From the NCBI GenBank assembly GCA_016699515.1, contig CP064978.1, forward strand, positions 892,359 to 956,358: DNA of 64,000 bases, read 5' to 3'. A program made the position numbers and the translations under genes. How positions within the stretch are numbered: position 1 is the stretch's first letter; each line of letters begins with the position of its first letter. This stretch comes from Candidatus Peregrinibacteria bacterium (GTDB taxonomy: Bacteria; Patescibacteriota; Gracilibacteria; UM-FILTER-43-11). Positions 3,636 to 58,630 of this stretch are shown here, piece by piece. A model generated the notes under the pieces. The model was not told the DNA's origin. It did no database searches and was given only the letters and a program-made list of their open reading frames with translations.

Positions 3636-4805
3636 ATGAAAAAACTCATTTCACTTTTTGCCCTGGTAGCTCTTTTGGTTCCTATGGTGGCTTTGGGAGC
3701 AGATTTTCGAGCAGAAGAAGATTTGAAAGTTGATCAGCCAATCCCCGAGGATCTTTACGCCGCGGGTGGCAGTATTCATTTAAACAATGGAATTGACGGT
3801 GATGCTTCTTTGGCGGGCGGTCAAATTATGATCGATAGTGTGATTCGGCAAGATCTGAATGTGGCAGGTGGTCGTATTGATTTTAACGGCCAAGTTGAAG
3901 GTGATGCCCGTCTTACCGGCGGGGAAGTTTTTATTAATGGAACCATTCAGGAGGACCTGATTATTGCAGCCGGTCAGGTTAAAATCACCGCAAACTCGGT
4001 GATTGGAGAAGATTTGGTTTTGGGAGCCGGAAGTCTTGTTTTGGACGGTGTGGTGAATGGGGATGTATTTGGGGGGGCGGGCGAACTAAAAATCAACGGT
4101 ACGGTACGGGGAAATGTTAAATTAATGAGCGTTGATCAACTTTCCTTTGGGCCTAATGGTCGTGTTGAAGGAGATTTGAGTTATCGTGCTTCTAAAGAAC
4201 AGCTGGGCTTTAATGAAAAAGTTGGCGGCACTATTCAATTTGAGCCATCTGTTTGGGGGGATCGTGGCGATTCCACCCACTCTGGTTCCACTTTTACTGT
4301 TCACTCATTTAACTGGTTTCGATTGCTAAGCCTACTCTTCGTTGGATTCTTCTTTCTTTGGTTTTTGCGTCATTATGCAGCCGGGGGAACGGCAAAACTT
4401 AAGGAGCGCCCTTTTTTCAGTTTTTTGATTGGTTTTTTGATTGTATTTGTCACGCCTGTACTGGCCGGGTTTTTTGCCATCACACTCATTGGCCTTCCGG
4501 CAGCTTATTTAATTCTATTAACCTGGCTGATGGCACTTTATGTTGTAAAATTAGCGGCTGCTACCGCTATTGGCTTTTTATTGGTCAAAACAAGTGCTAA
4601 AAAGGATTCTTTTGTGCGCGTTTATCTTTCTTATGCGTTGGGAGCGTTTCTATTTACGCTACTGGCCATGTTGCCCGGTGCTATTGGCTGGTCGCTTCAA
4701 TGGGCACTCGTCTTTGTGGCGATTGGAGGCTTTGCTATGTACGAGCTTGAGTTATTTACTTTCCTTCAAAAAAGATTTAATCTAGCGCATGCCCTACGCC
4801 ATTGA
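3636..4805 (+). CDS. Membrane protein with signal peptide, bactofilin-like beta-helical repeats and a multi-TM C-terminus
   Basis: N-terminal signal-like helix, repeated (D/E)L..AGG.I...G.I.GD units, and about 5 hydrophobic helices at the C-terminus. Confidence 0.6.
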   Translation: MKKLISLFALVALLVPMVALGADFRAEEDLKVDQPIPEDLYAAGGSIHLNNGIDGDASLAGGQIMIDSVIRQDLNVAGGRIDFNGQVEGDARLTGGEVFINGTIQEDLIIAAGQVKITANSVIGEDLVLGAGSLVLDGVVNGDVFGGAGELKINGTVRGNVKLMSVDQLSFGPNGRVEGDLSYRASKEQLGFNEKVGGTIQFEPSVWGDRGDSTHSGSTFTVHSFNWFRLLSLLFVGFFFLWFLRHYAAGGTAKLKERPFFSFLIGFLIVFVTPVLAGFFAITLIGLPAAYLILLTWLMALYVVKLAAATAIGFLLVKTSAKKDSFVRVYLSYALGAFLFTLLAMLPGAIGWSLQWALVFVAIGGFAMYELELFTFLQKRFNLAHALRH

Positions 4806-5580
4806 TACTCATTGCCATATTCATCTAATGCCAGAATCTGAGCGAAAGGCCGTGTTTGACCGTGCGCTTGCGGCCGGGGTTCAAAAACTGATCAATGTGG
4901 CCTGTAGCCTGGAAGACGTGGCCTTATGCCTGCCCATCACGGATCAGATGGACAATGTATGGACCAGTGTTGGCCTGCACCCGACTACCCTGGGTTATGA
5001 TTTGGAAAAGGATTTAGAACGGGTTTACGAAGTGGCTAAGGATGAGCGGAAAGTGGTGGGGATCGGTGAGATGGGGCTCGATTATTACCACAATAAATTC
5101 GACCGTGACACGCAGATTGATTATTTGGTGGGACACTTAAACATAGCCAAACAGCTGGATCTGCCCGCCATCATTCATTGTCGCGCGGGCAAAAATCCCG
5201 GAGAAAACGAATCGGCTTTTTTGGATCTGATTAAGGTGCTAAAAAAGGAACGGTTTTCACGAGCGCAAATTCACTGCTTTAGCGGGAATTTGCGCGAGGC
5301 TGATCAGCTTTTGGAGCTGGGTTGCTATCTTTCATTCACCGGAATTATCACCTATTCACGGAACGAGGAGCTTCGAGACATTGTAAAACGCACGCCGCTC
5401 GACCGCATGTTGATTGAAACCGATAGTCCGTATTTAACGCCCGACGGTCATCGTGGTAAACCTAATGAACCAGCCTATGTAATGGAAGTGGCCAAGACGA
5501 TCGCAACTGTAAAACAATTACCCCTTGAGCACGTTCTTTTGCAGACCAGTACGAATGCGGAGGGGTTTTTTAATATTTAG
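4789..5580 (+). CDS. tatD: TatD-family metal-dependent hydrolase
   Basis: IDTHCHI start, GEMGLDY, IIHCR and ETDSPYL motifs. Confidence 0.85.
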   Translation: MPYAIDTHCHIHLMPESERKAVFDRALAAGVQKLINVACSLEDVALCLPITDQMDNVWTSVGLHPTTLGYDLEKDLERVYEVAKDERKVVGIGEMGLDYYHNKFDRDTQIDYLVGHLNIAKQLDLPAIIHCRAGKNPGENESAFLDLIKVLKKERFSRAQIHCFSGNLREADQLLELGCYLSFTGIITYSRNEELRDIVKRTPLDRMLIETDSPYLTPDGHRGKPNEPAYVMEVAKTIATVKQLPLEHVLLQTSTNAEGFFNI

Positions 5581-5630
5581 GGTGTAGGGTGTAGGGCATA
5601 GTGAGTAGGGCATAGTGAGTAGGGCATAGT
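5581..5630. repeat. Left arm of inverted low-complexity repeat (word GTAGGGCATAGTGA)
   Basis: GGTGTAGGGTGTAGGGCATAGTGAGTAGGGCATAGTGAGTAGGGCATAGT, an imperfect reverse complement of 6027..6075. Confidence 0.8.
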
Positions 5631-5641
5631 TTTGGTTATGC

Positions 5642-6005
5642 CTAATATATTTTTTTGAGCATTGCATTTAGCATTCTCATGATTTCATCAAGTAGTTGCT
5701 CCGATTTAACAAAAAACCTTTCGTCAGACATACTTATTTTTGGCAATGATTATTTGAGTTTCCAGCTCTCCTCCGGATGCAAATGATACTTGCAAAAACT
5801 GCCTATACTGCCTAGTTGTCAGTCTTCTGTAACCTTCAGCTATATTTGACGGAATGGAAACTGAACATCGGCGCATCTGAGACACTAGGCCATACATTTC
5901 TGATTTCGGAAAATTCGCTGTTAACATGTAAATCTCCGAGACTAGTTCGATCGATTTTTGCCAAACAATCAGGCTCTTGTAACTTGAAAATTCACTCATA
6001 TACAA
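5642..6005 (-). CDS. Four-helix-bundle protein (23S rRNA intervening-sequence protein / Avd-like family), one frame break
   Basis: YKSLIVWQKSIELV..., RRCSVSIPSNIAEGY, GELETQIIIAK. The C-terminal SDERFFVKSEQLLDEIMRMLNAMLKKIY is in a second frame, with the break near 5727. Confidence 0.7.
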
Positions 6006-6026
6006 AAAAATAAATTATAAACAAAA

Positions 6027-6075
6027 CTATGCTCTACGAACCACACCCTATGCCCTACTCACTACACCCTACCCC
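6027..6075. repeat. Right arm of the inverted repeat pairing with 5581..5630
   Basis: CTATGCTCTACGAACCACACCCTATGCCCTACTCACTACACCCTACCC. It overlaps the last codons and stop of radA. Confidence 0.8.
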
Positions 6076-7403
6076 CTTATTAATTGCTTCTGCCACCGAC
6101 GATACTTGAGTGACCGATAATTTTGAATTCACCTTCATTGTAGGCATAAGGATTTTTTGAAAACCGAGCTGCTCGCATTCCTTGAGCCGTCTTTCGATCT
6201 GCATTACCGAGCGCACCTCGCCCGAAAGGCCAATTTCCCCCATCACCGCCAGATCGGATGGGAGGGGTTTTTTGAGTTTTGAGCTGGCGATTGCCAAGGC
6301 GACGGCTAGATCGACGGCGGGCTCGGAAAGCTTGAGGCCCCCCACTACATTTACGAACACGTCGGAACTGTCGAGTTTGATTTGGGCATAGCGCTCCAAC
6401 ACGGCCATAATAATATTGAGGCGATTGAGCTCAATTCCGCTGGCGGTACGCTTGGGGTAACCAAAGTGAGTGGCCGAGGTTAGTGCCTGCACTTCGACCA
6501 AAAACGTGCGCGTTCCTTCGAGTACCGGTACCACCACCGAGCCAATTGGGTTCTTAGGGCGTCCTTCCAAAAAGATGGCGGATGGGTTTTTCACACTGAT
6601 CATGCCCTCTTCTTTCATGTCAAATACTCCCACTTCGTCGACCGCACCGAAACGATTTTTGGTGGTGCGGAGCAAGCGGTAATGATGATGGGAATCCCCT
6701 TCTAAAAACAAAACCGTATCGACCAGATGGGTTAGCACTTGGGGGCCGGCCAAATTGCCGTCTTTGTTCACATGGCCAATCAGCAAAACGGGAATCCCTT
6801 GAGATTTGGCTAGCTGCATCAACTGTTCCGCCACGTAACGAACCTGAGAAATAGAACCCGCCTGACTTTCGATATTTTCGCTTTGCATCACCTGGACGGA
6901 ATCGACCACCACAAAGCCGGGTTTTTCGGATTGGATGGTGGCCAAGATCGATTCTAAATGATACGCGTTCATCACATGAATGCCTGACTTTAGCCCTAAT
7001 CTTCGCCCGCGCGAGGCGATTTGTTCGACCGATTCTTCGCCCGAAAAATAAAGCACTTTTCGATCGAGTTTGGCCAGTTCGTTGGCCACCTGGAGCGTGA
7101 GCGTTGATTTTCCGATTCCGGGCAAACCGGCCAGCAAGGTGATCGAGTCGGCCACCAGGCCCCGCCCACCGCCCGGTCGAATTCGTCAATGCCGGTGTTC
7201 AAGCGCTTTTTAGTGATTTCGATCGACTGAATGGTGACTTCGGGCTTCAAAGCCATTGCCGAAATCAGCGGTTTATCATTTTTACCCACATTCACCACAT
7301 CTTCCACCAAGGTGTTCCACTGCTTGCACCCCATACATTGCCCCGACCATCGCGAGGATTCTTGGCTACAATTACTGCAAACGTAGATTGATTTTAGTTT
7401 CAT
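6055..7403 (-). CDS. radA: DNA repair protein RadA (one frame break)
   Basis: N-terminal zinc ribbon CSNCSQ..CMGCKQWNT, Walker A GLPGIGKST and a Lon-like C-terminal domain. The break is in the C4 run 7160..7163; one extra base restores ..AVGGGLVADSITLLAG. Confidence 0.9.
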
Positions 7404-7408
7404 CCTTC

Positions 7409-7442
7409 TTAGTTAAGAGTTAATAATTGAGAGTTAAGAGTT
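7409..7442. repeat. Left arm of inverted repeat (word TAAGAGTTAA)
   Basis: TTAGTTAAGAGTTAATAATTGAGAGTTAAGAGTT. It pairs with 7779..7816 and encodes the C-terminus (..LNSQLLTLN) and stop of the enclosed gene. Confidence 0.8.
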
Positions 7443-7777
7443 GTTTTTTTGATTGCGCCCAGGATGCGTAAAAGCTCTTCGCAGTCTTTGATCAGTACCG
7501 TCACTTTATCCAGGGGTGCCAACTCGGAATCCCTAATCAACCTAAGCCAATAATGGGTTTCTCGAGTTTCTTTGTAAGAAATACATAATTTTGCAATGAA
7601 ATCTTTTCGTGATTGTCCACCAGCAGCCTCCTCTACGTTGGCTCCGATGGATGTACCCGACCTTAAAATCTGTTTTGCAATTATGTATTCTCGTTGCTGA
7701 TGAGCAAGATATTTGTAAAAAGATATTATTTTAAGTGCAAAAAAATAACTTTTTTCTTGAATAATGCTACGTTTCAT
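7409..7777 (-). CDS. Four-helix-bundle protein (23S rRNA IVS protein / Avd-like family)
   Basis: 122 aa with SGTSIGANVEEA and ETHYWLRL motifs typical of this family. Confidence 0.8.
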   Translation of the reverse strand: MKRSIIQEKSYFFALKIISFYKYLAHQQREYIIAKQILRSGTSIGANVEEAAGGQSRKDFIAKLCISYKETRETHYWLRLIRDSELAPLDKVTVLIKDCEELLRILGAIKKTTLNSQLLTLN

Positions 7778-7778
7778 T

Positions 7779-7816
7779 TTAATTCTTAATTATTAACTCT
7801 TAATTCTTAACTAAAG
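7779..7816. repeat. Right arm of inverted repeat pairing with 7409..7442
   Basis: TTAATTCTTAATTATTAACTCTTAATTCTTAACTAAAG. Confidence 0.8.
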
Positions 7817-7910
7817 TAAGTATAGTAAACATTCGTTCACCCGTCAACATTTTTCCTCTAGAATCTAAAATCTAAAATCTATACTCTAGGTAGGTCATTA
7901 AGATTATATT

Positions 7911-13816: not shown

Positions 13817-13860
13817 CTTAGTAGTTAAGAGTTAAGAGTTAATAATTAAGAGTTATTAAC
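13817..13860. repeat. Solo arm of the TAAGAGTTAA word repeat
   Basis: GTAGTTAAGAGTTAAGAGTTAATAATTAAGAGTTATTAAC directly upstream of the rplJ start. It has the same word and orientation as 7409..7442. Confidence 0.7.
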
Positions 13861-14128
13861 AGACTCAAAAAAATCTCGGGCGAGCGCAGCGAGACGTACT
13901 TATTCAAGATTCAAAATTATAACATTCAAGATTAATTTTGAAACGAATTGTATGTCTGCGGGGCTTCTACCCACCTAAGGCGGGATGCCTGCTTTCTGCG
14001 ACGTGACCATTTTACGGATTTAAATGTAGATGTCAAATCTATTTTGCTGTAAGTTGTAGAATGTTAGTAATGCATAGCTCTTTGCATCCTGACAACCGAT
14101 CCTTTATTAATATGTATTTTTAAGTCCA

Positions 14129-15076
14129 GTGAAACATTTTACCGTTGATGACAAAGGAGCAGACCGACGCTTGGATCAGTATTTATCCTCCGTTCGGCCC
14201 GACCTTACCCGTGCCTTCGTTCAAAAGATGATCAAAGGGGGTTCCGTGTTTGTGAATCAGAAAAAAATTACTAAAGCCTCCCATTCAGTACAAAAAGACG
14301 ATGAATTGGTGGTGCTCATCCCTTCGATTAAAGAAGTAGGCATTGTGGCCGAGGATATTCCACTGGACGTTGTTTATGAAGATCACGACATGCTGGTGAT
14401 TAATAAGCCTGCCGGAATGGTGGTGCACCCCACTGATCATGGGTCCCACGTTTCGGGCACATTGGTCAACGCGGTGATGCACTATTGTCATGATAGTTTG
14501 AGTGGCATTGGCGGGGATCGACGCCCCGGCATCGTTCATCGGCTCGATAAACAGACCTCGGGGCTCATTATGGTGGCCAAACACGATGGCGCCCATCGCG
14601 CCCTGGCGCATCAAATCGAATCCCGAAGTATTGTTAAAGAATATATTACCTTGCTTAAGGGGCGCCTTAAGCCGAAAGAAGGCAGCATAGAAGCTCCGCT
14701 GAAAGCTCAACCCAAGGGGGGGCGAACCGACGTGCAAATTTCCAATTCCATCACGGCAAAATACGCTCTCACTCATTATCATGTGCAGGAGTATTTAGGT
14801 GAATACAGCTTGGTTAACGTGCGCATTATTACCGGAAGAACCCATCAAATTCGCGTCCACTTTGCCGCTATTGGCCATCCGGTGGTGGGTGACGAAATGT
14901 ATGGCGACGCCACGACCAATCAAGCGATCGAATCGCTCAGTGGTTTACGGCGCCAATTTTTACATGCGGCTCAGCTGACTTTTCGACTGCCAAAAAACGA
15001 CGAGGAAATTACGCTTACCTCTGAGCTGCCTGATGATCTCAGTCAAACCATTGAAACGTTGAAGGTTGTAAGTTGA
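14129..15076 (+). CDS. rluD: RluA-family 23S rRNA pseudouridine synthase (RluD-like)
   Basis: S4-like N-terminus (RLDQYLS), catalytic HRLDKQTSGL, GRTHQIRVH. Confidence 0.85.
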   Translation: MKHFTVDDKGADRRLDQYLSSVRPDLTRAFVQKMIKGGSVFVNQKKITKASHSVQKDDELVVLIPSIKEVGIVAEDIPLDVVYEDHDMLVINKPAGMVVHPTDHGSHVSGTLVNAVMHYCHDSLSGIGGDRRPGIVHRLDKQTSGLIMVAKHDGAHRALAHQIESRSIVKEYITLLKGRLKPKEGSIEAPLKAQPKGGRTDVQISNSITAKYALTHYHVQEYLGEYSLVNVRIITGRTHQIRVHFAAIGHPVVGDEMYGDATTNQAIESLSGLRRQFLHAAQLTFRLPKNDEEITLTSELPDDLSQTIETLKVVS

Positions 15077-15126
15077 AGGTTGTAAGTATCGATTTTCCTA
15101 CAACATAAAACTTGCAACTTACAACA
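15058..15126. repeat. Low-complexity hairpin (word GGTTGTAAG) overlapping the rluD stop
   Basis: GTTGTAAGTTG (15065..15075) pairs perfectly with CAACTTACAAC (15115..15125). The left arm encodes the rluD C-terminus ..LKVVS and its stop. Confidence 0.7.
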
Positions 15127-22824: not shown

Positions 22825-24616
22825 TTATGAATCTATTTCTTCACTTTTGGCGATGGAATGGGCGATGGCCAGAATGGTTTCTTTAAGCTCCACGGGGCCC
22901 TTCACCACGTAATGGCTCGCTTCATCCCGCGGGACGGTGGCGTAGAATATTCCATTTTCCGTATTTTCGGAGGTGGTTTTTTGGCCTGAATCCAACCACA
23001 ATTCAATCAATGCCTGGTCGAGCTCTTCCACCTCTTTATCGGCGAATCCCACCAGCCATAAATGCCCTTCTGCCGCGCCGAAACTACGAAAATACCAATT
23101 TTTTGGGTAGTAAACATCGAATTGTTTGTGGGTATTTTGGTAGAGCCTCATGTTGTCGAGTGCCACTTGAATAGGCACTAGCTTTTCTTCCGTAAGCTCA
23201 CCGGCTGGTTCGACTGGTTCGGCTGGTTCGACTGGTTCGGCTGGTTCGACTGGCTTAACCGGTTCGACAGGTTCCGGCTCGGCATTTTGAACTTTGGCAA
23301 TTTGAATCGCCTCGCCGGACACCAAAGCCCACTTTGTCTTTTTCTGCTCGATAGAGCGCTTTTTGGTTAAATTGAAGCGATGTGTTATTCACGAGGGTAT
23401 ACTGATACCCCGCCCGGAATGTTTCGCCGTTTTGGGTGTAAATTACAAAAAGGATTTGGTCGGATTCTACCACCTCGTGGCGCACCACTTCGGCGTCGGT
23501 CGGAATAAGGTTTTGTTGATTAAAAAAAGCGATCACATTGCGAGCGGAAGTAATCGGCTCGGTGGAATCGCTCTCTTGTTTTTCGGCGATGAGCGCATCC
23601 AATTGCGCCTGTCGATCCGCCTGCTCGTCAACATCAATTGATGCTTCGGGCATCTTGGGCTCATCTAAACACACATAGCCGGTGGGGCACTTGTTTTGAT
23701 TGTAGGTGCGTGGCTTGTAATTGGTGCAGCCGGCGGGCACGGGAACAAAGGGGCAATTCAAACTTTCGTCGGTTGAATTGATGGGCACACATACCCCTTC
23801 GGAAGCTTGATCGCCGCCATTCAATTCACAGCGAAATCCTTCGGCACAAGCCAGTTGCTCTGCCCCTCCGCATTGATCTCCACTTTTTACGGATGTTTGA
23901 GCGATTTGAATGCTTTCAATCATGGCTAAAAAGTCTCGCTCCACGTTTTCGTCTCTTTTGAGCAATTGAATTTGGATTACTTTTTGGCGGGCGGTGTTTT
24001 CGATATAAAAACGAATTGAGTCGCTGGCTTGAAAACGCAACGCTGACTTGCCCGAAATGGTTACCGGCTGCCCTACGCTATTTTCGCGATCAGCCACCCA
24101 TGCATCGAGCCCCAAATCGGTGTCGATTGTATTGATCTGAACTAGGTCTTCTGCATTGTGGCGAAAGGTAATACTGCCGACCCCCTCACGCTGTTCCCAG
24201 TATGCCGGATATTCAAAGGTAAGGTCGTCGCTGGCACTTTGGTATTGCTTCTTTTGCCCCAAAGCACTTTCGTCCGCCAATTCGATTTGTAATACATTAA
24301 ACACCTGTGTTTTATTGTCGATTAACGTTTGCATTTCGCCTTTCACTTGCACTTTTTGATCCACAAAATTCGACAGCGAAATGCGACTGCTTTGCAGGGC
24401 GATTTCTCCGGTTGCGGTTATCAGTTGATGCGTTCCTCTCTTAAAGCGATTCGAGTCGATTGGTTTTAGCACCCCGATGTACATTTGTGATGCCTCACCG
24501 GTATCGGTCATTTCGCTGCCCGGCTGATTGATGCGATCGTCTAAATTGGGAGTTTTGGGTTGGCAAGCGCTCACCATCAACAAGGTTACTACCGCTAGTA
24601 AAAATTGTTTTTTCAT
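22825..24616 (-). CDS. Large lipoprotein with Cys-rich middle region and PVEPAE tandem repeat (one frame break)
   Basis: Lipobox LLMVSAC. ORFs 23255..24616 and 22825..23325 join (break somewhere in 23310..23365). Tandem repeat at 23203..23280. Confidence 0.6.
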
Positions 24617-32741: not shown

Positions 32742-34063
32742 TTAGGTTTGTCCCACGTCGGAAATAAGTGTGTAAATCGGCCCGATCACGGTGATTACCA
32801 AACCGGCCACCATTAAACCGAGTAGCACCATGATGGCGGGCTCGATGATGGTGGAAATATTTTTTACGTCGGTGTCCACGATTCCTTTGTAATAGCGCGC
32901 CATGTAATCGATTACCTGCGGCAATTTACCAGTGCGTTCGCCCACTCGAATGAGTTTAACAAACATCCCCGGAAACTTGGAGTCTTCTTTAAAGCTTTGC
33001 GAAAGGGCGGCTCCGCCTTTGATTTTTCCCAACATGTACTCAATTTCGGATTGGAATATGCTGTTCCCCACCACTTTTTGCGTGATTTCCAAACAACGAA
33101 GAATGGTGATGCCACTTGCGATCAGTGAACCAAAATGATGACTCACCTGGGCGGTGTTATAATTGCGAACAATTCGCCCAATCACCGGTAATTTAAGATA
33201 CAATCGGTCTTTTATTTTTTTAACTTTGGGCGTCCTTAACAAAGAAAAAAACTCACACCTCCCACCAGCCCGCCCACCATGAGCAAGGCGATGTATTTGT
33301 TGATAAAATTGGTGATCGCAATGATGATTTGAGTGGTGAAAGGAATTTCGGCCCCAAGCTATCAAAGATGGTTAGAATACGAGGCATAACAAACACCGCC
33401 AATACGATCATGAAGGTGAACATAACCGTCATAATGATTTTTGGATAAATCAGCGCCCCTTTTACTTTTGCTTTAAACCGATCGTTTTCTTCTAGATTGT
33501 CGGCCAGCCCCATCATCGTTTCGGAAAGGGTACCCGATTGTTCCCCGACGCTTACGATATTCACATAGATTTCGGGGAATATTTTGGGGTATTTTCGCAT
33601 GGCGGCCGATAGTGACTGACCGTTGTTGAGGCGCTCCAAAATTCCTTCTTAATTTGTATTGAAATGACTTGTTGCCATTTTGCGCAGCCAAAAATTTAAT
33701 CGATTCAAAAATCGTTACTCCTGCGCCCAACATCACCGCCAAATGACGGGTGAATTCGAGCACCTCTTTTTGAGAAACCGTTCCAATGGTGCTCAGCTTT
33801 TCCACCAGGGTCATTTTCTTTTTCTTCTGCACTTGTGGTACTGCTTTTTCGGTGGGGCCTTGTGTGAAATTCTGCGATTCGACTTCCACCACTCCTTCCC
33901 CACCCACGGCTTGCAACACTTCTCCGTCTTCGTCGACCAAGTTTCGCTCAACTTCCGAAGTTCTTTCTTCTTCGATCGCTTTGCTGACCGCTTGAGACGA
34001 ATGTTGCTCAGGTTCGGGCGGCGTGGTTTGGATCCCTGATTTTTTTAAACTTAAGGTAGGCAA
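32742..34063 (-). CDS. pilC: Type IV pilus platform protein PilC (GspF family), three frame breaks
   Basis: Three ORF fragments carry the two GspF-type repeats. Breaks are at A7 33245..33251, C4 33352..33355 and near 33640. It has a long acidic N-terminal extension. Confidence 0.8.
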
Positions 34064-40728: not shown

Positions 40729-40775
40729 AAAAATTACGAATTCACAATGACGAATTACGAATTTTTTCGTAATCG
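40729..40775. repeat. Low-complexity region (word ATTACGAAT) with a small hairpin
   Basis: AAAAATTACGAATTCACAATGACGAATTACGAATTTTTTCGTAATCG between the folD stop and the purF start. Confidence 0.65.
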
Positions 40776-40792
40776 AACTATTATTAAGCTTT

Positions 40793-47390: not shown

Positions 47391-47533
47391 GGTCACTGCC
47401 GAGTCACTGGATCACTAGGTCACTCGCTTCGCTTGATCACTAGATCACAAAATTATTAATTATTTTTTGCCCCAGTGATCAAGTCCCGATGATCATCGGG
47501 ACGAGTGATCCAGTGAAGAAGTGATCCAGTGAC
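47391..47533. repeat. 143-nt low-complexity palindrome (word GTGATCCAGTGA / TCACTGGATCAC)
   Basis: The left arm carries tandem GTCACTG/GATCACT words and the right arm their complements. The inner perfect palindrome is CCCGATGATCATCGGG. It abuts the nadB stop. Confidence 0.75.
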
Positions 47534-55001: not shown

Positions 55002-55078
55002 TAATTACGAATGACGAATTACGAATGACGAATGACGAATTATGAATTACGAATTATGAATTACGAATGACGAATTAA
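55002..55078. repeat. Tandem degenerate heptamers GAATTAC/GAATGAC (word ATTACGAAT), single arm
   Basis: TTAATTACGAATGACGAATTACGAATGACGAATGACGAATTATGAATTACGAATTATGAATTACGAATGACGAATTAATA. It contains the stop codon of the cNMP-binding gene. Confidence 0.75.
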
Positions 55079-55467
55079 TAGAGTTCATTGGCTCTTTTCA
55101 CCACTTCGTAACTCACTCGGGTTGCGATCGACTCGTTCGTTTGCAATAAGTGATTGAAGTCCTCTTTGCTCAACGTCAACACTTCAACATCGGTAAGGGT
55201 TTTTAGGGTTGCATTGCGTGGCTCGTTAGACACCAGTGCCATTTCTCCAAAAAATGCATGATCGCCCAAGGTGCTCAAAATGGCATTGTCACGGATGACC
55301 TGAACTTTGCCGCGCTTGATGATGTACATGGTGTCGCCCAGCTGTCCCTCTTCAAAAATAATATGGTCTGCGGGAAAATAATTCATTTGCACCGTGCGGG
55401 CAATTTGATTGAGATCTTCGTCGCTCAATGATGCGAAAAAGGGAATGTTTTTTAGAATTTGTAGCAT
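55075..55467 (-). CDS. Single-domain cyclic-nucleotide-binding protein
   Basis: FFGEMALVSNEPRNATL, the canonical cNMP-binding phosphate-binding cassette pattern. 130 aa. Confidence 0.8.
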   Translation of the reverse strand: MLQILKNIPFFASLSDEDLNQIARTVQMNYFPADHIIFEEGQLGDTMYIIKRGKVQVIRDNAILSTLGDHAFFGEMALVSNEPRNATLKTLTDVEVLTLSKEDFNHLLQTNESIATRVSYEVVKRANELY

Positions 55468-55476
55468 TTTATTTTT

Positions 55477-55559
55477 AGGAGTAAGGATTAAGTGGTAAGG
55501 AATAAGCTCGGGAGGTTGGGATGAGTTTTTTTCATCCTTCCCAATCCCTTATTCCTAAG
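55477..55559. repeat. Low-complexity hairpin (word AGGAGTAAGGA)
   Basis: AGGAGTAAGGATTAAGTGGTAAGGAATAAG ... CTTATTCCTAAG with an inner GGATGA/TCATCC stem. The related word CTAAGGAGTGAAGGAGTAAGT occurs at 39170..39190. Confidence 0.6.
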
Positions 55560-55651: not shown

Positions 55652-58546
55652 TTGAATAAAATAATTGTAAAAGGGGCTCGCGCCCATAATTTAAAGAACG
55701 TCGATGTAGAAATTCCACGCGATCAACTCGTGGTTTTAACCGGCCCTTCGGGCTCGGGCAAATCGTCGCTCGCGTTTGATACGATCTACGCCGAAGGTCA
55801 ACGCAGGTATGTGGAAAGTTTGAGCACCTACGCGCGCCAGTTTTTACAATTGATGGAAAAACCCGATGTGGATTCGATTGAAGGTCTTTCGCCCGCTATT
55901 TCGATCGACCAAAAAACCGCCAGCCGCAATCCACGTTCAACCGTAGGAACGGTGACTGAGATTTATGATTATTTACGCCTTTTGTTTGCCAAGGTTGGCA
56001 CGCCTCATTGCCCTGAATGCAATCGATTGATTCAACGTCAATCAGCAAGCCAAATGGTGGATATTATTGCCGACATGCCCGAAGGCAAACGCTTTATGCT
56101 TTTGTCCCCTATCATTAAAGATCGAAAAGGATCGCACGAAAAAGTGATCGAAAAAATCAGAAAAGATGGTTTTGTGCGCTTCCGTGTGAATGGAACTATT
56201 TATACCGTCAATGAAACAGTTGCCTTGGATCCCAAAAAAAAGCATAGCATCGAAATTGTGGTCGATCGCTTGGTGGTGCGCGATTTAAAGAAAAAATGGG
56301 TCACGCTTCAATCGGGCGAAACCGTTGAAGAAAAAAATGAAGATCGTTCGCGCTTGGCTGATTCCCTTGAAACTGCTTTGCGATACGGCGAAGGCATGAT
56401 TAAGGTGGTGGATGCCGATACGAATGAAGAAGAGCTTTTTTCGGAAAATTTTGCCTGCGACCACTGCAACATTTCCATCCCCGAAATTCAGCCTCGCTCG
56501 TTCAGCTTTAATTCGCCCCATGGGGCATGTGAGGATTGTCATGGCCTGGGAACCAAGCAAAAAATCAATCCCGATTTGGTGATGCCTAACCCCAAACTTA
56601 CCATTGCCGAGGGAGCAATTTTGCCTTGGTCGAATTCGTCCATGCGGCTGAATTGGTACAATGGACTTTTAAAAGAGGTGGGCAAAAAACACGGATTCAG
56701 TATCGATACGCCGATCGGCAAGCTGACCGATGAACAAGTGCGACTGATCCTTTATGGCACTGGCGAAGAAACCTATCGCACCCATTACAGCTCGCAACAC
56801 AACAGTCATGAATACACCACCACGTTTGAAGGCGTCATTCCCAATTTGGAGCGGCGCTATCACGAGTCCGAATCGGATTACGTGCGGCATAACATTGAAC
56901 GTTTTATGGAAGAACTGGCCTGCGAAAGCTGTGGTGGACAACGGCTTAAGCGCGAGGCGCTGAGCGTTCAAATCGATCAAAAGTCCATCATTGATGTGAC
57001 CGAGTTTTCCGTGGAGCAGGCGCAAGCATTTTTTGCCAAATTCAAACCTGAACATCCCGATTACTCTTTGAATGATTCCCAATACGCCATTTCGAAATTG
57101 ATCATTCAGGAAATTTCAAATCGCCTGGAGTTTTTGAACAATGTGGGGCTTTCTTATTTAACGCTCAGTCGGGCGGCTAATACCCTTTCGGGCGGAGAAG
57201 CACAACGCATTCGCTTGGCCACTCAAATTGGCTCATCCCTTCAGGGAGTGCTTTATGTTTTGGATGAGCCGTCGATCGGATTGCATCAGCGTGATAACGA
57301 TCGCCTGATTAAAACCATGGAGAATTTACGTGATTTGGGCAATACCGTTTTGGTGGTGGAACATGACGAGGATACGATCAATGCCGCCGATTATGTACTG
57401 GATATCGGTCCGGCTGCCGGAAAACATGGAGGCTATGTGGTGGCAGCGGGAACCGCTGAAGAGATCAAGCAAAATAAACAATCGATCACCGGTGATTATT
57501 TATCGGGACGGAAACAGATTGAAATTCCGGCCAAGCGCCGCAAGGGCAGCAACCATTTTTTAGAGATACTAGGTGCCGAGGAACACAACCTTCGCAAGGT
57601 GAATGTGAAGATTCCTTTGAACTGTTTTATTGGCGTGACCGGTGTATCGGGCTCGGGAAAATCGTCATTGATCAATCATATTTTGTGCCCGGTGCTCAAC
57701 ACCAAGCTCAACCGTGCCAAGCAACGCGCCGGAAAACATGAGGCGATTAAAGGCATTGAACACTTGGACAAAATCATTAACATTGATCAATCCCCCATTG
57801 GCCGTACTCCCCGCAGTAACCCTGCCACCTACACCGGAGTGTTTACGAATATTCGCGAACTGTTTGCCTCAACCAGCGAGGCGCAATTGCGTGGCTACAA
57901 AGAAGGGCGCTTTAGTTTTAATGTAAAAGGCGGCCGTTGTGAATCGTGCAAAGGAGACGGGATTGTGAAAATTGAAATGCACTTTCTACCGGATATTTAT
58001 GTGCCTTGCGAAATTTGTAAAGGCAGACGCTACAATGCCGAAGCGCTGGAAATTACCTGGAGGGGCAGCAACATTGCCGACGTTCTGGACATGACGGTGA
58101 ACGAAGCGCTGGAAGCCTTTGAAAGCATTCCACAAATCAAGAGCAAATTGGAAACCTTGCAAGATGTGGGATTGGGATACATTCACTTGGGTCAGAGCGC
58201 CACCACGCTTTCGGGTGGAGAGGCTCAGCGGGTCAAGCTGGCTACCGAGCTGGCTAAACGTGCTACCGGCCGCACCATTTATGTGTTGGATGAACCCACC
58301 ACCGGGCTTCATTTTGACGACGTTAAAAAACTGCTGAATGTACTTCAGGCCTTGGTAGATAAAGGAAATACGGTGCTGACCATCGAACACAATTTGGATG
58401 TGATCAAGTCGGTGGATTATGTGATCGATTTAGGGCCCGAAGGTGGCACCGGGGGCGGCAACATTGTATGCACCGGTACGCCCGAAGAAGTGGCCAAGCA
58501 CAAAGAAAGCCACACCGGACGCTATTTGGCGAAAATGCTTCTTTAA
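55652..58546 (+). CDS. uvrA: Excinuclease ABC subunit A
   Basis: 964 aa with two ABC ATPase modules (GPSGSGKSS, GVSGSGKSS), zinc-finger Cys clusters and LSGGEAQR signatures. Confidence 0.95.
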   Translation: MNKIIVKGARAHNLKNVDVEIPRDQLVVLTGPSGSGKSSLAFDTIYAEGQRRYVESLSTYARQFLQLMEKPDVDSIEGLSPAISIDQKTASRNPRSTVGTVTEIYDYLRLLFAKVGTPHCPECNRLIQRQSASQMVDIIADMPEGKRFMLLSPIIKDRKGSHEKVIEKIRKDGFVRFRVNGTIYTVNETVALDPKKKHSIEIVVDRLVVRDLKKKWVTLQSGETVEEKNEDRSRLADSLETALRYGEGMIKVVDADTNEEELFSENFACDHCNISIPEIQPRSFSFNSPHGACEDCHGLGTKQKINPDLVMPNPKLTIAEGAILPWSNSSMRLNWYNGLLKEVGKKHGFSIDTPIGKLTDEQVRLILYGTGEETYRTHYSSQHNSHEYTTTFEGVIPNLERRYHESESDYVRHNIERFMEELACESCGGQRLKREALSVQIDQKSIIDVTEFSVEQAQAFFAKFKPEHPDYSLNDSQYAISKLIIQEISNRLEFLNNVGLSYLTLSRAANTLSGGEAQRIRLATQIGSSLQGVLYVLDEPSIGLHQRDNDRLIKTMENLRDLGNTVLVVEHDEDTINAADYVLDIGPAAGKHGGYVVAAGTAEEIKQNKQSITGDYLSGRKQIEIPAKRRKGSNHFLEILGAEEHNLRKVNVKIPLNCFIGVTGVSGSGKSSLINHILCPVLNTKLNRAKQRAGKHEAIKGIEHLDKIINIDQSPIGRTPRSNPATYTGVFTNIRELFASTSEAQLRGYKEGRFSFNVKGGRCESCKGDGIVKIEMHFLPDIYVPCEICKGRRYNAEALEITWRGSNIADVLDMTVNEALEAFESIPQIKSKLETLQDVGLGYIHLGQSATTLSGGEAQRVKLATELAKRATGRTIYVLDEPTTGLHFDDVKKLLNVLQALVDKGNTVLTIEHNLDVIKSVDYVIDLGPEGGTGGGNIVCTGTPEEVAKHKESHTGRYLAKMLL

Positions 58547-58630
58547 ATTACTTATTATCAATTATTTATTACTTATTAACTGCTCGTTCAAATTCCCTGC
58601 CAGTTAATAAGTAATGGTTAATAAGTAATT
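58547..58630. repeat. Low-complexity hairpin (word TTAATAAGTAA) between convergent uvrA and the PP2C gene
   Basis: CTTATTAACTG (58572..58582) pairs perfectly with CAGTTAATAAG (58601..58611). The arms extend with tandem TTACTTATTA words, and the right arm contains the PP2C stop. Confidence 0.75.

Follow-up and report, generated by a model that had tools for sequence, protein, structure and literature searches.

A discrete element of about 500 bp lies between radA and tatD (positions 5578-6077) in the 64,000-nucleotide stretch of Candidatus Peregrinibacteria bacterium contig CP064978.1 analysed here (the window), and comprises a four-helix-bundle gene of the 23S ribosomal RNA (rRNA) intervening sequence (IVS) protein family enclosed by inverted arrays of tandem heptamers. 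We consider it probable that this element is a hitch-hiking cassette of the IVS type, which would be transcribed by read-through from radA, would fold into a stem cut by RNase III, and would end host translation arriving in any frame. The comparisons described below establish that the cassette was inserted, that it has the character of a unit, that its protein is under selection, and that its arms have the potential to pair, and they define the polarity of its stop codons and its placement; co-transcription with radA and cleavage by RNase III are proposed by analogy with rRNA IVSs. The core of the original prediction for this site, a four-helix-bundle gene between inverted repeats of about 50 nt that lies outside any rRNA and has the stem-plus-open reading frame (ORF) layout of a 23S rRNA IVS, was borne out by the match of the gene product to PF05635, by the pairing of the arms, by the lack of any rRNA in the 64-kb window, and by the heptamer-built arms found in the IVSs of Coxiella and Azospirillum.

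A four-helix-bundle gene with signs of purifying selection

The cassette gene (5642..6002, minus strand) encodes a protein of 119 residues once a frameshift is repaired, and the corrected product matched the 23S_rRNA_IVP family PF05635 over its full length (profile positions 1-106 of 106, E = 2.6e-34, 118 bits versus a cut-off of 33.8) and belongs to the NCBIfam family TIGR02436 (5.1e-33, 113.6 bits versus a cut-off of 24). Residues 7-115 also matched the structure of Xcc0516 (PDB 2GSC, E = 5.8e-21). The motif GxxRxxxSxxxNxxE, which characterizes the family (PMC3936711), is present as G37, R44, S48, N52, and E55, in columns that are invariant or nearly so in the family alignment. Members of PF05635 form homopentamers (Lin et al. 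2006 as cited in PMC4990558; structure 2GSC), and the family is still described as functionally uncharacterised (PMC11270868, PMC4990558).

The position, strand, and family first assigned to the gene were correct, while its extent had been given as 5642..6005; as written, the ORF stops after 93 residues (5724..6005, minus strand), and the corrected gene spans 5642..6002. An intact homologue of 119 residues, P0001 on metagenomic contig L081, is 85% identical to the cassette protein, and comparison with it located the frameshift to a 2-nt contraction of an A7 run to A5 (the T-run 5737-5741 on the plus strand). The radA gene is likewise frameshifted, with a G-run near 7150 shortened by 1 nt from G5 to G4 relative to L002 and L003, and a pilC-like (T2SSF) gene at 32742-34063 is also split, so that at least three genes in the 64 kb are divided by frameshifts. 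As the break in the cassette gene is a homopolymer contraction and radA and the pilC-like gene are similarly broken, we discarded pseudogenisation and conclude from these alignments that the frameshifts in the cassette gene and radA are probably homopolymer errors of sequencing or assembly rather than decay. Comparison of the window and L081 gave a dN/dS of 0.11 (dS 0.70), and other close pairs gave values of 0.07-0.17, indicating that the cassette protein evolves under purifying selection. Conservation extends beyond the coding sequence: the arms and spacers of the two cassettes are far better conserved than a dS of 0.7 predicts, and the AT-rich spacer, or 5' leader, between the 5' arm and the ATG (6003..6026, minus strand) retains about 27 of 30 positions in L081.

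Heptamer arrays on both sides of the gene can pair into a long stem

The tatD-proximal arm (5578..5630), the 3' arm when read in the direction of the cassette gene, was delimited by TRF, inverted-repeat search, and folding, and consists of approximately 7.5 tandem heptamers, namely 2.7 copies of TAGGGTG followed by 2.9 copies of GTAGGGC/ATAGTGA. The radA-proximal arm (6027..6077), the 5' arm in the same orientation, carries the same heptamer words inverted, as seen with TRF and the inverted-repeat search. The arrays reported by TRF were 5578-5596 (TAGGGTG), 5591-5630 (GTAGGGCATAGTGA, 2.9 copies), 6027-6071, and 6043-6077 (ACACCCT, five copies), and the arms can be summarized as inverted tandem arrays of the words GGGTGTA, GGGCATA, and GTGAGTA. 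Two inverted repeats had previously been placed at 5581..5630 and 6027..6075; the repeats themselves stand, while their limits had to be amended to 5578-5630 and 6027-6077 and their make-up to tandem heptamer arrays. In the same way, the left arm does adjoin the end of tatD, but it begins within the tatD stop codon rather than at the base after it, as the TAG at 5578-5580 forms the first three bases of the array. The right arm had been said to encode the last codons of radA, and the final seven codons of that gene (KGVGCSE) and its stop codon (6055-6057) do indeed lie within the arm (6055-6077).

The inverted-repeat search aligned 5586-5629 with 6034-6077 (44 nt, 80% complementary), extending to 5574-5652 with 6004-6082 (79 nt, 72%). 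Folding of the arms, a check proposed along with the original prediction, supported pairing: the RNA from 6090 to 5570 (minus strand) had a predicted free energy of -160 kcal/mol versus -120 ± 6 kcal/mol for shuffled sequences (z = -6.4), and its minimum-free-energy structure contained 51 base pairs between the arms, joining 6076..6017 with 5639..5586. The flank inverted-repeat score of the cassette was 58, while random spans of the same length in related loci had a median of 14 and a maximum of 25, and the 95th percentile for the flanks of other genes was 25. When the 70 genes of the window were ordered by this score, four-helix-bundle genes took ranks 1 and 2.

The radA/tatD junction is occupied in some relatives and empty in others

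The host gene tatD (4789..5580, plus strand) encodes a TatD-family DNase (PF01026, 2.1e-71) and converges on radA (6055..7403, minus strand; ORFs 6055..7155 and 6996..7403, assigned by Pfam), which is upstream of and co-directional with the cassette gene. The closest relatives of RadA are 72% identical and come from Candidatus Peregrinibacteria and Peribacteria, members of the candidate phyla radiation (CPR), and radA and tatD are convergent in all Peregrinibacteria relatives compared. The suggestion that a discrete cassette had been inserted at this convergent junction, to be examined by looking for an empty site in related genomes, was substantiated by 13 relatives in which the radA and tatD ORFs overlap or are separated by no more than 51 nt and neither a repeat array nor a hairpin intervenes. 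As none of these 13 junctions contains a hairpin or array, we also rejected a pre-existing hairpin as a landing pad for the gene.

Two relatives have an occupied junction. L081 carries the same cassette, with the same family of words and about three fewer units in both arms, while L002 carries a four-helix-bundle gene in the same orientation with arms of the TTAGCTT type. The L002 protein is 52% identical to that of the window and ranks 125th of 125 relatives, and each of the two is closer to more than 100 proteins encoded in other contexts than to its counterpart. Every relative with the gene at this junction has flanking inverted repeats; the gene without them, which had been named as an observation that would count against insertion of a cassette, was not seen. 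Because empty junctions lack the arms and the L002 cassette has both a different gene and different words, the sequence comparison indicates that the arms arrived at the junction together with the gene, and colonisation of the junction seems to have happened repeatedly.

Other inserts were also observed at this position. L001 has an insert of approximately 860 nt (2130-2980) that encodes a predicted membrane-anchored protein and no four-helix-bundle cassette there, and L011, L015, and L018 have unrelated inserts of 1-2.7 kb. These unrelated inserts mark the radA/tatD junction, as judged from the loci compared, as a recurrent insertion site.

Genes and arms recur together in metagenomic loci

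We surveyed 80 metagenomic loci encoding relatives of the cassette protein, using as controls random same-length spans in related loci, the flanks of other genes and, for arrays, 244 control segments. The flank inverted-repeat score was above the 99th percentile of the random-span controls in 57 of 78 loci and above the 95th percentile of other genes in 54 of 79. Tandem arrays were present in 127/160 flanks versus 36/244 control segments, with a period of 7 in 89 flanks, 8 in 30, and 9 in 6, and with a median of 4.3 copies (interquartile range 3.4-4.7). Arms had a median length of 31 nt on each side, their lengths were correlated between sides (rho 0.40), and 47 of 51 loci had equal periods on the two sides. 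The arrays were inverted at 56 loci, direct at 6, and neither at 17. The words were specific to the locus, examples being TTAGCTT, GTGACGA, TAGGGAA, GGGGCCA, and GTGATTG, and no rRNA was found at the 16 related loci tested.

Protein identity correlated with the sharing of arm 6-mers across 73 loci (Spearman 0.29; 0 of 2000 Mantel permutations), with 39% of arm 6-mers in common for pairs at or above 70% protein identity and 1% for pairs below 40%. Similar cassettes lie in unrelated flanks in two pairs of loci, L002/L108 and L083/L098, whose proteins are 67% identical within each pair and whose arms have 70% and 77% of 6-mers in common, while the window and L002 have homologous flanks around different cassettes. 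This double dissociation indicates, at the level of sequence, that gene and arm words travel together between genomic contexts.

Away from the cassette, arm words occurred at 8.3 per 100 kb of the same contig, compared with 1.8 per 100 kb on other contigs. At L094 (4230-4845), L126 (2900-4600), and L128 (2100-3420), ordinary genes are bracketed by the words of a nearby cassette, among them genes for a membrane protein and an epimerase and cheY- and cheB-like genes; arrays of the same word can therefore occupy several neighbouring intergenic regions. Direct comparison of arms with RNAduplex gave medians of -47 kcal/mol for cognate and -32 kcal/mol for non-cognate pairs, a measure that discriminates poorly, as 100-nt fragments always give long duplexes. 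One contig with a four-helix-bundle cassette, L140, also has a gene for a RAYT-like (IS200-like, REP-associated) transposase (57-677) flanked by GC-rich palindromes resembling repetitive extragenic palindromic (REP) sequences. In L159 (1600-3400) an exact tandem duplication of approximately 1.16 kb includes the whole cassette, with proteins and arms 100% identical, and may be real or an assembly artefact; the locus was uninformative as a test with two paralogues, being an exact tandem duplication.

Cassettes lie at the tails of transcription units and their arms carry polar stop codons

Of 70 informative loci, 58 have the cassette gene immediately behind the 3' end of a co-directional gene, and only 6 have a divergent gene upstream. 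Downstream, the neighbouring gene converges on the cassette in 23/61 loci (38%), an arrangement shown by 7% of the other adjacent gene pairs at these loci. From this placement and the enrichment of convergent neighbours it follows that the cassettes sit at the tails of transcription units, in sense, as IVS ORFs do within pre-rRNA.

Stop codons in all three frames were found on the sense strand of 66% of upstream arms versus 23% on the antisense strand, and on the antisense strand of 63% of downstream arms versus 33% on the sense strand; in unit-shuffled arrays they were found in 47% and 31%. TAG accounts for 319 of 440 arm stops and is present in 78 of 119 consensus units. The array encloses the stop codon of the host gene in 25 of 51 cases upstream and in 13 of 20 downstream, as it does for both radA and tatD in the window. 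Neither 7 nor 8 is divisible by 3, so that with either period a word containing a stop closes every frame at any number of units, and three-frame stops fit arms that overlap the coding ends of host genes and vary in length by slippage.

A terminator scan found no terminator-like site on the minus strand between radA and the cassette. On the plus strand it identified a small terminator-like hairpin (GGGCATAGTTTTGGTTATGCCT) followed by a T-rich run at 5622..5653, facing transcription that enters from tatD, with 9 base pairs, a loop of 4, and the tail AATATATTTT. The innermost heptamer together with the spacer forms this hairpin, which shares positions with the 3' end of the cassette gene, encoded on the opposite strand; both hairpin and T-run are kept in L081.

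The same design occurs in other phyla and in a canonical rRNA IVS

Cassettes of the same design were found on plasmids of cultured bacteria, including Geminocystis (GGGAAAA words), Stanieria, Calothrix, Picosynechococcus, and, in the Bacteroidota, Riemerella anatipestifer (AAGGTTC words). A plasmid of Picosynechococcus PCC 7003 (L175) has a four-helix-bundle gene between cmr2 and cmr3 with inverted AGGAGAT arrays, and a plasmid of Pseudanabaena galeata (L174) has one between cas6 and cas4 with direct arrays, comprising 14 copies of AAAGCTA upstream and 10 of AAAAGCC downstream. Stray four-helix-bundle genes between unrelated genes had been noticed before, in cas loci and between gmk and nadD, and left unexplained (PMC3936711, PMC5524665); the two plasmid loci match the earlier observation of 23S_rRNA_IVP genes in cas loci (PMC3936711) and may explain it. 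Plasmids gamma and alpha of Nostoc sp. PCC 7120 (L166 and L167) encode an identical four-helix-bundle protein (WP_010994075.1), each beside the end of an ISL3-type transposase gene, and retain only a downstream array of the heptamer CTCTGCC, the upstream arm seemingly having been displaced by the insertion sequence.

On plasmid AZO_p2 of Azospirillum lipoferum 4B, the 23S rRNA gene (L172, 13795-15339; Rfam LSU, 915 bits) contains a canonical IVS at approximately 530-1010 of that locus, in which a four-helix-bundle ORF lies between inverted arrays of four heptamers, GGACGGA/TGACAGA, similar to the GACAGAT word of Coxiella. The Coxiella burnetii IVS is 428 nt long with a 28-bp terminal stem that is cut by RNase III, has two or three tandem GACAGAT heptamers, variable in number among strains, before its S23p ORF, and carries an ORF that is reported as decaying (PMC4990558). 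These parallels place the cassette of the window in one class with the ORF-bearing rRNA IVSs, the type of site being what differs.

A second cassette and further arrays in the window

On the other side of radA, a second, unrelated cassette of the same design spans 7397..7830 (minus strand; Pfam, TRF, and fold), so that radA is flanked by two co-directional cassettes. Its gene (7409..7777, minus strand) is intact and encodes a PF05635 protein of 122 residues (4.6e-24), and its arms are inverted heptamer arrays at 7410-7442 and 7779-7813 built from AGTTAAG/AATTAAG, the left of which encodes the C-terminus of the cassette's own protein. Its fold had a z of -4.6 with 36 pairs between the arms. A promoter-like site lies upstream of it (7847..7819, minus strand), and L001 has a degraded homologue at the same place with AATTACG arms.

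Words of the second cassette recur at 13823-13842, within a solo heptamer array (13820-13856) upstream of the gene for ribosomal protein L10 that has an exact 18-nt stretch (AGTTAAGAGTTAATAATT) in common with an arm of that cassette and is followed by a non-complementary ATTCAAG array (13902-13933). Hairpins that consist of inverted tandem arrays of 7-8 nt with short loops and contain no gene were found at gene ends at 15058-15125, 58546-58629, 47404-47532, and 40732-40790. One of these (58546-58629) lies exactly between the stop codons of two convergent ORFs, and another (15058-15125) has the stop codon of the upstream ORF inside its array and is followed by a canonical terminator; such gene-less hairpins look like cassettes that have no ORF. 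A gene for a cyclic-nucleotide-binding domain (55075..55467, minus strand) is bracketed by arrays at 55003-55077, with 10.7 copies of AATTACG/AATGACG, and at 55477-55506, which is non-complementary and of the TAAGGAG type. The AATTACG words of the former are the arm words of the degraded four-helix-bundle gene of L001 and recur at 40746. A 9/18-nt tandem repeat (CTGGTTCGA, approximately 8 copies) lies at 23202-23279, within the overlapping ORFs 22825..23325 and 23255..24616 (minus strand).

Weighing the explanations

The account that we find probable is that an S23p/IVS-protein gene, apparently promoter-less and forming with its inverted heptamer arrays an element of about 500 bp, was inserted between radA and tatD and would be transcribed by read-through from radA. 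Its arms would fold into a double-stranded RNA stem of approximately 50 bp that, by analogy with rRNA IVSs, is probably cut by RNase III, which would separate the cassette mRNA from that of radA; the three-frame stops of the arms would end host translation in any frame at any repeat number, and the inner hairpin and T-run (5622-5653) would stop transcription entering from tatD. The most fitting view of the element is that of a hitch-hiking gene cassette, old and low in copy number, that is selfish or commensal. A classical transposon or miniature inverted-repeat transposable element (MITE) was rejected, as the arms are specific to the locus and differ between the two cassettes of the window, and there is neither a target duplication nor a transposase. 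Several observations weigh against the account of a hitch-hiking cassette processed as RNA. No transposase, integrase, or target-site duplication was found at the cassette, whose sole gene is that for the four-helix bundle, no near-identical copies were seen in different contexts within one genome, and movement is deduced from old events only, cassettes in unrelated flanks being at most 67% identical. The cassette gene is frameshifted as written, although an error is probable, and shared ancestry is a partial confounder of the correlation of protein with arm words. Approximately 8% of loci have direct arrays, unable to form a stem, around intact genes. Across 60 loci, arm mismatches comprised 77 G.U and 73 A.C (p = 0.81), a comparison blurred by register ambiguity in tandem arrays; this lack of a G.U excess means that no upkeep of complementarity by selection on a sense-strand RNA helix is visible, and it lowers our confidence that the RNA stem is the selected feature.

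The same two observations, intact genes with direct arrays and no G.U bias, speak against a purely RNA-level logic and favour a different account, which we hold to be possible though unlikely, in which the cassette is a cognate-repeat system resembling a REP/RAYT 'REPtron'. The arrays would be putative recognition sites for the pentameric protein that they enclose, with some 4-5 words for five subunits, and the protein would maintain, regulate, or mobilise both the arms beside its gene and same-word hairpins that lack a gene, RNA stem and RNase III cleavage being secondary. Consistent with this, arm words follow the protein rather than the site or genome, as the window's two cassettes differ and the window and L002 share a site and not words; the family is homopentameric and arrays hold 4-5 words (a median of 4.3 copies in approximately 31 nt); same-word arrays are enriched on the same contig (8.3 versus 1.8 per 100 kb), with the words of the second cassette recurring at 13823-13842; and gene-less hairpins of the same design are present in the window. 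Avd, the homologue from diversity-generating retroelements, binds nucleic acid and a polymerase. The link between word and protein is, however, explicable by physical linkage and common descent alone, an array of approximately 31 nt would also suit RNase III as a substrate, the words of the radA/tatD cassette occur nowhere else in the 64 kb, and pure binding sites would not need the observed preponderance of inverted (56) over direct (6) arrays. A broader form of the idea, in which PF05635 genes and heptamer arrays would be widespread, phylum-spanning cognate protein-repeat cassettes whose protein recognises its own 7-nt words (about five per array) and maintains or moves cassettes and gene-less hairpins, with 23S rRNA IVSs and possibly the cyanobacterial and Geobacter arrays as special cases, appears doubtful to us.

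The strong purifying selection on the protein, the retention of non-coding parts between the window and L081 despite a dS of 0.7, the low copy number with no recent transposition seen, and the placement at operon ends and convergent junctions with a terminator-like hairpin facing tatD would all suit a domesticated host module, that is, a resident regulatory device, inherited vertically and often lost, for example one that joins a putative RNA-binding accessory protein to an RNA-processing or termination insulator placed between convergent genes. We nevertheless judge such a module quite improbable, given that the 13 relatives with overlapping or abutting radA and tatD ends have no trace of the arms, that the L002 cassette at the same junction belongs to another lineage closer to cassettes in unrelated contexts, that other phyla have this design within an rRNA gene, amid cas genes, and on plasmids, and that decayed copies exist (L001; Coxiella, PMC4990558). 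It is extremely improbable that the gene is an orphan Avd gene of a diversity-generating retroelement: its similarity to Avd is weak (35.6 bits to PF22296, bAvd, below the cut-off of 40) and reaches 21 bits against the NCBIfam Avd equivalog NF033474, whose cut-off is 80, its neighbours are tatD, radA, and nadE with no reverse transcriptase or template-repeat/variable-repeat (TR/VR) pair nearby, and its flanking repeats are tandem heptamers rather than TR/VR. Membership in this group was accordingly rejected on the equivalog score and the missing reverse transcriptase. The homopolymer indels of the assembly lend some colour to a chance inverted repeat or assembly artefact, to which we attach next to no weight, as independent contigs from other samples (L081 and L002) have the same layout at the same junction, the inverted-repeat score is far outside the controls, and the fold has a z of -6.4.

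Comparison with known systems

Among repeat-associated genes, the cassette resembles REP/REPIN sequences with RAYT genes ('REPtrons') in that a single gene lies between inverted short repeats and gene-less hairpins of the same repeat are intergenic, often at gene ends. Unlike the HUH/Y1 transposases of REPtrons, the cassette protein is a helical bundle of 120 residues without a known catalytic motif, and its repeats are tandem heptamer arrays with modest same-word dispersal rather than single palindromes. In Correia elements and other MITEs, transcription together with adjacent genes yields RNA in which the terminal inverted repeats pair into hairpins that RNase III cleaves. The cassette is similar to Correia elements as a small insertion at gene boundaries that would be co-transcribed and whose terminal inverted repeats would provide a double-stranded RNA substrate that reshapes the mRNA ends of neighbours; it differs in that Correia elements are non-coding, high in copy number, conserved in sequence, and flanked by a TA target duplication, whereas the cassettes are low in copy number and have a conserved gene, locus-specific arms, and no target duplication. 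With Avd it has in common a distantly homologous pentameric four-helix-bundle fold, although the gene falls below the equivalog threshold and has neither a reverse transcriptase nor a TR/VR pair.

Arrays without such a gene are also known. The 'global regulator sites' of Geobacter metallireducens are paired tandem-repeat arrays of unknown function (PMC2700814), and they resemble the gene-less hairpins of the window. In both the Geobacter and the cyanobacterial arrays, 3-5 tandem units of 7-9 nt are paired on opposite strands in intergenic regions, mostly at gene ends. The heptamer repeats of cyanobacteria (short tandemly repeated repetitive sequences, STRR) are tandem arrays of unknown function, and cyanobacterial four-helix-bundle genes are flanked by heptamer arrays, although published accounts of either set of arrays drew no connection to genes of this family. 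The published gene lists for Geobacter show IS110-family insertions between or beside the pairs and no four-helix-bundle genes, and the heptamer and octamer arrays of G. metallireducens were therefore rejected as the same system and retained as an analogy only.

The closest relatives are the 23S rRNA IVSs of Leptospira, Coxiella burnetii, Brucella, Xanthomonas, and Azospirillum lipoferum (L172), which for 35 years have been regarded as curiosities without an established origin. The cassette has in common with them the PF05635/S23p protein family, an ORF in the loop of a long stem of terminal inverted repeats, in sense with the host transcript and within approximately 430-500 nt, and tandem-heptamer arms whose unit number varies among close relatives (two or three in Coxiella, four in Azospirillum, and differing between the window and L081). 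In contrast to rRNA IVSs, which lie within 23S rRNA at helix 9, 25, or 45, it is located between two protein-coding genes, tatD and radA, and its arms overlap and terminate the host ORFs with inward-reading three-frame stops; excision by RNase III has been demonstrated for rRNA IVSs and is predicted for the cassette, whose modelled stem would be long enough; and the ORF of the Coxiella IVS is reported as decaying, whereas the subfamily of the window is under purifying selection. In operation the cassette resembles an IVS, with the gene, stem, and heptamers that define that class, but its location excludes it from the rRNA IVSs. The protein family and the rRNA IVSs were known, while the flanking architecture of the non-rRNA copies is apparently undescribed: we found no description of non-rRNA IVS-like cassettes with inverted heptamer arrays, co-inheritance of gene and arms, and polar stops in the searchable literature, the coverage of which is incomplete. 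The locus and its relatives show that the combination of gene and inverted heptamer arrays is independent of rRNA, having settled behind ordinary genes, at their 3' ends, in CPR bacteria, in cyanobacteria, and in Bacteroidota, and also between cas genes. This would provide an explanation for the thousands of stray 'four helix bundle protein' annotations between unrelated genes and a rationale for the arms, in which the heptamer period yields three-frame stops at any repeat number. The function of the family would become testable in cultivable hosts such as Riemerella, Nostoc, and Picosynechococcus, and the rRNA IVSs would become one landing site of a general hitch-hiking cassette.

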